From: Candidatus Aminicenantales bacterium
GTDB taxonomy: Bacteria > Acidobacteriota > Aminicenantia > Aminicenantales > Saccharicenantaceae
DNA: 20,000 nucleotides
Direction of reading: 5' to 3'
NCBI GenBank assembly: GCA_049512315.1
Contig: JBEKXF010000030.1
Coordinates: 52,555-72,554, forward strand
Shown: piece by piece, positions 17,675 through 20,000 of the stretch
How positions within the stretch are numbered: position 1 is the first letter of the stretch
Layout: each line of letters begins with the position of its first letter
Position numbers and translations under genes: made by a program
The notes under the pieces: model-generated
Told to the model about the DNA's origin: nothing
The model's input: only the letters and a program-made list of their open reading frames with translations
Database searches by the model: none

Positions 17675-18229
17675 ATGGGAACTCTCGTCGTTTTCTTAAT
17701 CATCATCGCGGCCATCGCCATCATGGCCGTCGGCATGTACAACAGCCTGGTCACCCTGCGGAACCGCTGCGACAACGCCTGGTCCCAGGTGGACGTCCAG
17801 CTCCGCCGCCGCTATGACCTCATCCCCAACCTAGTGGAGACGGTCAAAGGTTACGCCAAGCACGAAAGCGGGGTCTTCGAGCGCGTGACGCAGGCCCGGG
17901 CCGCGGCCGTCAACGCTCAGACCGTCAAGGACCAGGGCCAGGCCGAGAACGTGCTGACCGGGGCCCTGAAGTCACTCTTCGCCGTCGCCGAGAACTACCC
18001 CGACCTCAAGGCCAACCAGAACTTCCTGATGCTCCAGGAAGAGCTCGCCGGGACGGAGGGCAAGGTCGCTTACGCCCGGCAGTTCTACAACGATAATGTC
18101 ATGAAATTCAACATGCGGCAGCAAGTCTTCCCCTCGAACATCATCGCCAACATGTTCGGCTTCAAGACCAAGGAATACTTCCAGATCGAAGAGGAAGTGG
18201 CCAAGGGTCCGGTCAAAGTCAGCTTCTGA
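17675..18229 (+). CDS. lemA: LemA family protein
   Basis: N-terminal TM helix, [60 protein letters not shown]. Confidence 0.96.
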
Positions 18230-18281
18230 GCTGGCTGGGGCGCTTTATCGAGTTCGGCGGGCCTTTTTGGGCCGTCATCCG

Positions 18282-19181
18282 ATGTATGAGCAGATCAGCC
18301 GCAACAAGTGGAAATCCGCCGCCCTCATCCTCTTCTTCATGGCTTTCATCTTCCTCCTGACCTGGTTCTTCGAGTACGTGACGGGCTGGGGAAAGGGCGG
18401 GCTGGTCCTGGCCGTCGTCGTCTCGATGGGCATGGCCGCTGCCGGATATTACTCGAGCGACAAGGTCGTCCTGGCCATCAGCCGGGCCCGCCCCGTGACG
18501 AAGGACGAACACCCGTATCTCTATAACGTCGTAGAGGGGCTGGCGATCGCTGCCGGCGTGCCAACGCCTCGCTGCTACGTCATCGACGATACGGCCCCCA
18601 ACGCGTTCGCCACCGGCCGGAACCCGCAGAACGCCGTCATCTGCGTCACGACCGGGATCCTTGAAAAGCTGAACCGCGTCGAGCTCGAGGGCGTCATCGC
18701 CCACGAGATGTCCCACATCAAGAACTACGATATCCGGCTCCAGACTCTGGTCGTGGTCATGGCAGGCGTCGTGGCCCTTCTCAGCGACTGGATCCTGCGG
18801 AGCTTTTTCTGGGGCGGGGGAAGGAGACGGGGCGGGCGGGACGGCCGCGGCGGAGGCGGTGCAGGGGCCATCCTGATCGTCGTCGGCCTGGCTCTGGCCG
18901 CGCTATCGCCGTTCATCGCCACGATCATCCAGCTCGCCATCTCGCGGAAGCGGGAATTCCTGGCCGACGCGAGCGGGGCCATGCTGACGCGCTACCCCGC
19001 GGGGCTGGCCTCGGCACTCCGGAAGATCTCGGCGGACACGGAGCCCCTCGAGGCGGCTAATAAGGCCACAGCCCACCTCTACATCGTCAACCCGCTCAAG
19101 AACATCAAGGGAACGGTCAACAGGCTCTTCAGCACGCACCCCCCCGTCGAAGAGCGGATCGCGGCCCTCGAGAAGATGTAA
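18282..19181 (+). CDS. htpX: HtpX-like M48 zinc metalloprotease
   Basis: PNAFATGRNP, ELEGVIAHEMSH (HExxH), SRKREFLAD, STHPP..ERI. Typical position downstream of lemA. Confidence 0.93.
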   Translation: MYEQISRNKWKSAALILFFMAFIFLLTWFFEYVTGWGKGGLVLAVVVSMGMAAAGYYSSDKVVLAISRARPVTKDEHPYLYNVVEGLAIAAGVPTPRCYVIDDTAPNAFATGRNPQNAVICVTTGILEKLNRVELEGVIAHEMSHIKNYDIRLQTLVVVMAGVVALLSDWILRSFFWGGGRRRGGRDGRGGGGAGAILIVVGLALAALSPFIATIIQLAISRKREFLADASGAMLTRYPAGLASALRKISADTEPLEAANKATAHLYIVNPLKNIKGTVNRLFSTHPPVEERIAALEKM

Positions 19182-19187
19182 CGTGCC

Positions 19188-19484
19188 TCAGGTCAGGCTT
19201 TTGTAGGCGTCCTTTATAGACTTCTTGAGGTCTTTGACCGAGCGCTTGATGGTCTTTTTCATGTCTCCGGCGAGCTCCTGCCCGGTCTTCGTCCATTCCT
19301 CGAGCCGGGTTTTGAGGTCCGCCTGCGTCTTTTCGAGGGTGTCGAGCGTTTTGTCGTACTCAACCTTCGCTTCCAGTTTGACCTCATTGGCCTTGGCCCT
19401 GAGCTCGATGAGCCTGGCCTTGAGGTGATCCATCTCGATCCCGATCTTCGCCTGGAATTTCTCTTGTTTTGTAAGTTTGGCCAT
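19188..19484 (-). CDS. Small Lys/Glu-rich coiled-coil hypothetical protein (98 aa)
   Basis: ATG 19484 after GAGGAGGGAG, heptad pattern, and its own promoter upstream. Confidence 0.75.
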   Translation of the reverse strand: MAKLTKQEKFQAKIGIEMDHLKARLIELRAKANEVKLEAKVEYDKTLDTLEKTQADLKTRLEEWTKTGQELAGDMKKTIKRSVKDLKKSIKDAYKSLT

Positions 19485-19530
19485 GATCTCCCTCCTCTTC
19501 GATCGAATGAAGTGCGGTCCCTTATTAATT

Positions 19531-19559
19531 AGTATAGGCTTTCTGGCTGCTTGAGGCAA
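19531..19559 (-). promoter_or_regulatory. Sigma70 promoter of the coiled-coil gene
   Basis: TTGCCT-17 bp-TATACT. Confidence 0.6.
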
Positions 19560-19664: not shown

Positions 19665-19693
19665 TTGAAAGTCCCGGCCCATTTCTCTATAAT
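19665..19693 (+). promoter_or_regulatory. Sigma70 promoter of tRNA-Asp
   Basis: TTGAAA-17 bp-TATAAT, followed by a GC-rich discriminator. Confidence 0.85.
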
Positions 19694-19707: not shown

Positions 19708-19784
19708 GGGGTCGTAGTTCAGCTGGTTAGAACGCCGGCCTGTCACGCCGGAGGTCGCGAGTTCGAGTCTCGTCGGCCCCGCCA
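19708..19784 (+). tRNA. tRNA-Asp(GTC)
   Basis: 77 nt cloverleaf: acceptor GGGGTCG/CGGCCCC, D-loop TAGTTCAGCTGGTTAGA, anticodon arm CCGGC-CTGTCAC-GCCGG, T-arm GCGAG-TTCGAGT-CTCGT, encoded CCA. Confidence 0.98.
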
Positions 19785-19835: not shown

Positions 19836-19873
19836 TTTAGGCACCTTTAGTCCGAATTGGGCGAGTTTAGGCA
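19836..19873. repeat. Phased direct repeats TTTAGGCA / TTTAGTCC / TTTAGGCA
   Basis: Copies start at 19836, 19846 and 19866. Confidence 0.5.
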
Positions 19874-19903
19874 AAATCTGTGACATTATCCTATGTCAAT
19901 ATT

Positions 19904-19999
19904 TTAGTTGACAGCCTCCTTTCGGCAATAAGATTCCTTATTCTTGAGCATGTAGTAGATGATCTTGATGAGCTGCCGGGAGAGGGCATTCATGGCTTG
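19904..19999 (-). mobile_element. C-terminal fragment of a probable IS110-family transposase/recombinase (continues beyond the window)
   Basis: Minus-strand translation QAMNALSRQLIKIIYYMLKNKESYCRKEAVN* resembles the IS110 C-terminal helix pattern A..A.ARKL..I.Y.ML.....Y. Only 31 aa are visible. Confidence 0.6.
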
Positions 20000-20000
20000 C

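Follow-up and report, generated by a model that had tools for sequence, protein, structure and literature searches.

An IS110-group element that probably targets a twin repeat near tRNA attachment cores in an Aminicenantales genome

The only solved relatives of the recombinase described here are IS621 and ISCro4 (E 1e-9 to 1e-10), and the accessible portions of PMC11208160 and PMC11208158 present a design that our element shares with them, namely a RuvC-like DEDD domain together with a serine domain, a long left end and a short right end, and a -35/-10 pair formed at the circle junction. Target and donor loops, the guides LTG, RTG, LDG and RDG in the same order, the handshake positions, and a core with a strict second and a variable first base are likewise common to them, as far as these portions go. 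By the same sources, the present element differs from both in its distant 389-aa protein, a TG or CG rather than a CT core, right guides of 7 nt, and the conserved 5' stem-loop, which is not predicted here. In IS621 the core is part of all four guide pairings according to the available part of PMC11208160, whereas the left-guide core positions of our element do not copy the core; its target is, moreover, probably the attachment arm of an integrated island and not a REP sequence.

In the available part of PMC11187229, the IS1111-attC group (ISKpn4, ISPst6) hits integron attC sites and IS4321/IS5075 hit the terminal repeats of Tn21, and our element resembles them in being an RNA-guided IS110-family member directed to sites at which other mobile elements recombine or end. 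Unlike these elements of the IS1111 group, which have a 3' non-coding region and long sub-terminal repeats, it is of the IS110-group type with a 5' non-coding region, and its likely target is a direct-repeat pair at the arms of tRNA-integrated tyrosine-integrase elements. ISEc21, covered by the same part of that paper, shares the IS110 group, the upstream non-coding region, the circle promoter and a target within other mobile elements, but its target is the DDE codons of IS3-family transposase genes, and thus coding DNA. Within the literature covered (listings and the beginnings of abstracts), no IS110 elements in integrase arm sites were found; ISfinder, TnPedia, subscription journals and bioRxiv supplements lie outside this scope and may describe the clade. 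The readable parts of the PMC11208160 supplements contain neither the donor motif nor the terms integrase and Aminicenantes, those of PMC11187229 do not contain the twin repeat, and the accessible parts of PMC3469429 and PMC13604230 hold nothing on integrase arms as a target. The machine is known; the attachment-arm target class is probably undescribed and comes with a small mechanistic departure from IS621. Island attachment arms would join REP sequences, attC sites, transposon ends and transposase genes among the known natural targets of bridge RNAs.

We hold with good confidence that the window, the whole stretch of 20,000 nucleotides that was analysed, ends in the right end of a 1.38-kb IS110-group bridge-recombinase element that targets a twin repeat near tRNA attachment cores, most likely an arm-type site pair, and for which a neutral ride is the most likely pay-off (Table 1). 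The window's last base is the end of its contig, C30, and its final 122 bp recur without a difference where contig C11 ends and where C56 starts in the assembly of this genome (G000); because 122 bp is the usual overlap length in this assembly and is common to the three contigs, the assembly graph forks at the window end. An earlier note on this DNA had described a minus-strand frame, QAMNALSRQLIKIIYYMLKNKESYCRKEAVN, closed by a stop codon at 19904-19906, a TTGACA hexamer at 19899-19894, four nt beyond the stop, and the lack of a -10 at a spacing of 16-18 bp while the element is integrated. All of this we could confirm; the promoter scan lists no site with this hexamer. By themselves the frame and the hexamer are weak, given that 31-codon open frames are common, TTGACA occurs five times in the window and the 31-aa tail has no Pfam match. 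What lends them significance is that these 122 bp also close C11, behind PF01548 and PF02371, and that TTGACA has this very position in 36 of 37 junctions of related elements. C30 stops, and the continuation is legible only via the overlap with C11, which carries the remainder of the element with both Pfam domains, the DEDD and Ser residues and the 5' non-coding end. The proposal of an IS110-group right end is therefore supported, PF01548 and PF02371 both lying on the C11 continuation.

Table 1. Features at the right-hand end of the window
Feature	Window position	Strand	Evidence
IS110 recombinase gene 3' end, last 31 codons + stop	19904..20000	-	identical to C11:96050-96146; C-terminal helix conserved in homologues
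Right non-coding end, 18 bp	19886..19903	-	common to three contigs, which diverge past the target bases; conserved in relatives up to the core
-35 hexamer TTGACA, circle-junction promoter	19894..19899	-	17 bp from TACTTT, upstream TG, on joining the ends
Left donor sequence, read by left donor guide	19886..19893	-	same 8 letters in donor loop C11:94954-94961
Core dinucleotide TG	19884..19885	-	TG also at left junction C11:94836-94837; element removal rebuilds twin-repeat sites
Core-proximal TGTGACA heptamer of the probable attachment arm = core + right target	19879..19885		complement of right target guide C11:94910-94916
Four TTTAG(G/T)C-like units, 10-bp period	19836..19873	+	78-87% identical copies beside tRNA pieces on C24, C26, C27, C34, C39
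tRNA-Asp(GTC), attachment core of an integrated element	19708..19784	+	ARAGORN; IS core 100 bp away

On C11, PF01548, the N-terminal DEDD RuvC-like domain, was found at C11:95113-95463 (E 4e-14) and PF02371 at C11:95763-96017 (E 5e-22), with the G--P---SG serine motif present as GVSPVVWQSG. The residues D19, E65, D106, D109 and S308, invariant in 46 aligned homologues, are all retained in the C11 copy, and the protein P0002 scores 181 bits against NF033542 (NCBIfam IS110; cut-off 140). A protein search gave 144 relatives, the best of them 92-94% identical and 367-401 aa long, some named as IS110 transposases of Candidatus Aminicenantes; no relative of the element was found in the viral contigs searched, and no named close relative in the plasmids searched, where the best match was about 30%. 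The layout is that of the IS110 group, with a left end of about 187 bp of non-coding DNA upstream of the gene and a right end of 18 bp, and long sub-terminal repeats are absent, the only inverted match being imperfect, 7 bp long and seen by eye. Taken together, the domains, layout, predicted promoter and putative guides place the element in the IS110 group.

Scans for related elements returned 57 metagenome and 13 genome loci; counting the G000 copy as well, 54 had a usable left end (49 distinct). Of the rest, L055 and L079 were excluded as truncated and L068 as mis-anchored, and the others had no anchor. In the related elements, conservation stops on either side at a dinucleotide that is TG or CG, and this comparison of copies and empty sites, which the earlier note had proposed for defining the ends, also yielded the TG core, the rebuilt sites resembling empty ones on C27 and C66. 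The element end that the note had put near 19880 has to be moved, since the end is at 19886, the core at 19885-19884, and 19883-19879 is target DNA. Joined in silico, the ends give TTGACA, 17 bp and TACTTT, with an upstream TG, so the -10 predicted to arise on joining does appear at the junction. TAnnnT is present in 35 of the 37 junctions, and both hexamers in 34/37; as the TA of the -10 was in the anchor pattern, only its last T (35/37) is an unbiased count. Left and right cores differ in 9/37, in the first base in eight of these (an off-by-one call accounts for L037); the core of the right donor guide is identical to the right core in 36/37. This pattern agrees with cleavage of the top strand after the core and a tolerant first base, both of which the accessible part of PMC11208158 gives for IS621. 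A joint of right end to left end, as expected of circles, was not found in the contigs of four sequencing runs, contigs being prone to drop rare forms.

Two further observations concern the left end. A second extended -10, TGnTAnAAT, lies at C11:94857-94865 (L008:1546-1554) and is present in 40 of the 49 left ends. It follows the junction -10 by 6-12 nt and precedes the target hairpin by about 7 nt, and the bridge RNA could start from it, even while the element is integrated. In addition, orphan left ends without a recombinase gene occur in other genomes, on G002:C38 (L009/L171) and G056:C36 (L010), one being a nearly whole bridge-RNA region in an attachment arm and one a short stub.

In 28 of 34 distinct two-sided loci, a twin TGTNAC repeat is rebuilt when the element is removed, with 5/6 letters or more matching in each unit and a period of 10 or 11 bp; the other six lack it. 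L022, L045 and L048 are retargeted to other sequences. The right flank opens with a TGTNAC unit in 37/43. At the window copy, the twin of the heptamer at 19879..19885 has ended up beyond the other end of the element, and empty analogues have the two units 11 bp apart. A tRNA piece was found within 250 bp in 18/67 proximal flank windows versus 5/282 distal ones, mostly 76-114 bp off and of many isotypes. G000 itself holds 16 strict empty twin repeats, 11 of them no more than 250 bp from a detected tRNA piece, a zone that makes up 1.4% of the genome, and three further empty ones beside decayed tRNA-Arg pieces. In its integrases on C36 and C66 the repeat lies about 70 bp before the stop codon, between the catalytic end and a tRNA piece. 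An integrase search matched 47 of 121 genomes of the order, and among the best 30 loci (28 with enough flank) the twin repeat follows the catalytic Tyr within 250 bp in 15/28, versus 0/127 gene-body windows; the remaining 13/28 are without the pattern as defined. The commonest integrase-side version is the target of the larger subclade, L067 is inserted at exactly that spot, and L014 is an independent insertion into a tRNA-Asp arm resembling the window's. With a detector limited to G000 tRNAs, a T-arm pattern and G000 integrases, a tRNA piece or an integrase was found at 21 of 47 element loci (an integrase in the available flank at 2/47) and neither at 26/47.

Arm-type sites of tyrosine integrases of the lambda type are direct repeats on both sides of the attachment core. 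The twin repeats are direct repeats that flank the attachment core near an integrase gene, and because of this position and geometry they are candidate arm-type site pairs; their presence in the rebuilt sites and behind tyrosine-integrase genes makes it probable that they are the integrase arm-type sites of tRNA-integrated islands. Since the arm is missing behind the orthologous tRNA-Asp in 6/6 genus relatives, it is island-borne; the array at 19836..19873 is equally absent in the six relatives having this tRNA, and is probably island-borne arm DNA, possibly made up of excisionase sites. The tRNA itself was rejected as the target, insertion being 100 bp away and beside many different tRNAs or pieces. 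As such, the element does sit beside tRNA-Asp as had been claimed, at that distance, but what it probably targets is the island attachment arm and not the tRNA gene; arm targeting would explain elements about 100 bp from tRNA genes without tRNA targeting. Four 3' pieces of tRNA-Asp occur elsewhere in the genome (C4, C6, C28 and C32). Many tRNA-Arg(CCG) pieces on C24, C26, C27, C34, C39, C66 and C14, each with the same arm 5' or 3', form a large tandem array of putative small integrated elements.

By the model of IS621, the element would excise as a circle, the junction promoter would drive the bridge RNA, a recombinase tetramer would pair target and donor loops with DNA, and the conserved serine would cut the top strands after the core, followed by handshake-paired exchange and resolution of the junction. 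The target loop would read TGTNAC-N5-TGTNAC, with the left guide covering the first unit and the spacer and the right guide the second unit, and insertion would take place at the TG of the second unit of a repeat that is separated from tRNA attachment cores by some 75-125 bp and in many cases marks the 3' end of a tyrosine-integrase gene. The donor core would regenerate the interrupted unit, the core-proximal unit staying in place and its twin being moved 1.38 kb away. Insertions of the clade are found in both orientations; the palindromic units make the pair a twin whichever strand is read. Such a landing site would be multi-copy, intergenic, horizontally moving and inside island boundaries, and the pay-off is most likely neutral, that is, a harmless lodging and a ride between genomes, which we rank above a lock on excision. 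Weaker island excision is nevertheless a likely side effect because the arm pair is pulled 1.38 kb apart. Here we speculate further, while considering it unlikely, that the clade is a reversible RNA-guided island lock, in which insertion between the arms blocks excision of the island and scarless excision releases it, the guides drift with the arm variants of different integrases, and an unrelated IS1111-type element of the same genome was independently reprogrammed to the same arm; attachment arms would then be a niche that bridge recombinases have occupied more than once. The system also allows a direct test of whether a mobile element can gate the movement of another.

The function of the repeat within the island could differ from the one preferred here, with targeting exactly as described, if it bound an excisionase or a host factor instead of the integrase. 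Excisionase sites are likewise short direct repeats at the helical period. The C36 integrase frame (L104:596-2074, G000) is continuous with an upstream excisionase-like HTH_17 domain, and many relatives align over the same length. The twin repeat, however, occurs on both sides of attachment cores, as arm-type sites do, and a separate 10-bp TTTAGGCA array that is one-sided only offers the better excisionase fit, which leaves this reading a rather slim chance. A host origin of the repeat, as a REP-like or tRNA-associated element, would make this a case of host-repeat targeting as in IS621. It would agree with the multi-copy, intergenic occurrence of the repeat, its palindromic units and the 16 strict copies in G000, but is very improbable, given that the repeat is absent behind the orthologous tRNA-Asp of the genus relatives, keeps a constant offset at the 3' ends of integrase genes and stands next to pieces of tRNAs as well as full ones. 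An integrase arm-type pair remains the preferred identity of the repeat.

Compared with relatives, which have intact 389-aa frames, the C11 copy is short of 48 letters where the gene starts and carries two additional ones near C11:95630, and its recombinase frame is not intact. The 48 letters are present in the contigs of all four peat runs (X1-X4), and the gap thus looks specific to the assembly. Otherwise, X1 and X2 match C11 without difference or gap and X3 does so up to position 2645 of the compared locus, so that the 2-nt frameshift is real in these three runs; X4 breaks at the place of the frameshift and is perhaps a mixture. A programmed frameshift was rejected, as relatives are without the two letters and the site is no slippery heptamer. 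The frameshifted G000 copy is probably non-autonomous and would need an intact relative to move. Element and flank depths were 21 versus 9-12 (X1), 43 versus 18-22 (X2) and 27 versus 13-14 (X3), although depth is not equal to copy number, and a 1202-nt contig of X1 shares the left junction and then runs into other DNA. G000 probably has two copies of the element. By analogy with L014, we infer that the left flank missing from the bin is that of the window copy, whose guide is assumed to be that of C11, its own left end and left flank being absent from the assembly. Alternatively, the window junction might be an assembly artefact, with a single copy and a false branch at the right end. The C11 assembly does have at least one defect, the 48 missing letters, and the bin contains no second left flank; yet the roughly twofold depth of the element contigs over their flanks in X1-X3 (again, not a copy number), the X1 contig that leaves the left junction into other DNA, and the window flank, which is a perfect right target, make an artefact extremely unlikely.

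The fold of the left end consists of two hairpins that contain internal loops (z -2.97, 0/200 shuffles), two-sided changes occur in 14 of 34 consensus pairs (24 sequences), and an Rfam search of the left end gave no family. Across the clade, the left target guide matches its own flank at 270/376 non-core letters, versus 48% after shuffling flanks, and the right target guide at 154/175, versus 70%, neither level being reached in 20000 shuffles (0/20000 each); the donor guides are likewise above all 20000 shuffles, and the A/T at the last position of the left donor sequence covaries across relatives. Because shuffles ignore kinship, a tree from the coding DNA of 34 elements was used to draw 17 pairs sharing no branch, in which the own guide was better in 13, worse in none and tied in 4 (p 1e-4). 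Handshake letters match in 69/72 versus 54 and in 60/94 versus 39. This two-loop RNA, with guides that match flanks and ends, is a putative bridge RNA, and with about 50 guide-target pairs the clade would amount to naturally reprogrammed TG-core bridge recombinases. The core is included in the right guides; the left target guide has TT over the TG core in 47/49 target loops, its second core base matched in 0/47, and the left donor guide has AG over the TG core in 47/49 donor loops, its first core base matched in 0/37, so the IS621-like presence of the core in all four pairings was not found, a departure that bears on both mechanism and tool design.

As to the suggestion that the non-coding end would carry loops matching the flanks, the C11 left end has loops complementary to 19879-19885, and for the window copy the statement is limited to this borrowed left end, its own being missing. 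Between the C11 left guide and its flank only 6/8 letters match, and contigs of three runs have three differences in the stretch containing this guide. The predicted 15-mer target of C11 has no perfect site in G000 and five two-mismatch sites, three of them away from any detected tRNA piece. In L016, L018, L045 and L053, where the spacer is shorter, a one-base slip improves the match of left flank and left guide, and the T-run of the guide may permit such a slip in the left pairing. That a TGTNAC preference of the protein itself sets the site, the RNA matches being an inherited coincidence, accords with the one consensus common to most targets and with kin sharing sequences, but is hardly credible, because the guide departs along with the flank wherever the latter leaves the consensus (L018, L022, L045, L048, L053) and the independent guide-flank pairs stand at 13 to 0.

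Apart from this RNA-guided element of the IS110 group, the genome holds an IS1111-type element, at C50:142-1441 (L107) and C14:7445-8693 (G000), with both Pfam domains, sub-terminal inverted repeats, a 177-nt 3' non-coding region, a GG core and a TTGCGT-17-TAACAT junction. Its insertion site is an arm of the same kind, inside the 10-bp TTTAGGCA array, and its RNA matches the left flank at 10-11/11 letters. Its arm targeting appears to be a lineage-specific retargeting, because the 72-80% relatives target other sequences. Family-wide arm targeting was unsupported, as 0/8 loci with at least 70% identity and a readable right flank had the pattern; these eight include G000's own copy, with its degenerate units, and by eye no relative lies in such an arm.

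Further observations were made around the tRNA gene of the window. A near-consensus promoter, TTGAAA-17-TATAAT, lies directly upstream of tRNA-Asp (window 19665-19693), and a lemA-htpX(M48) pair occupies window 17675-19181. Between the two, at 19188-19559, the minus strand encodes a 123-aa coiled-coil-like protein without a Pfam match, which is kept upstream of tRNA-Asp in genus relatives. In addition, repeated hairpin-like units with C and G runs directly follow tRNA-Asp or its pieces in the genus relatives L085, L090-L092, L100 and L101.
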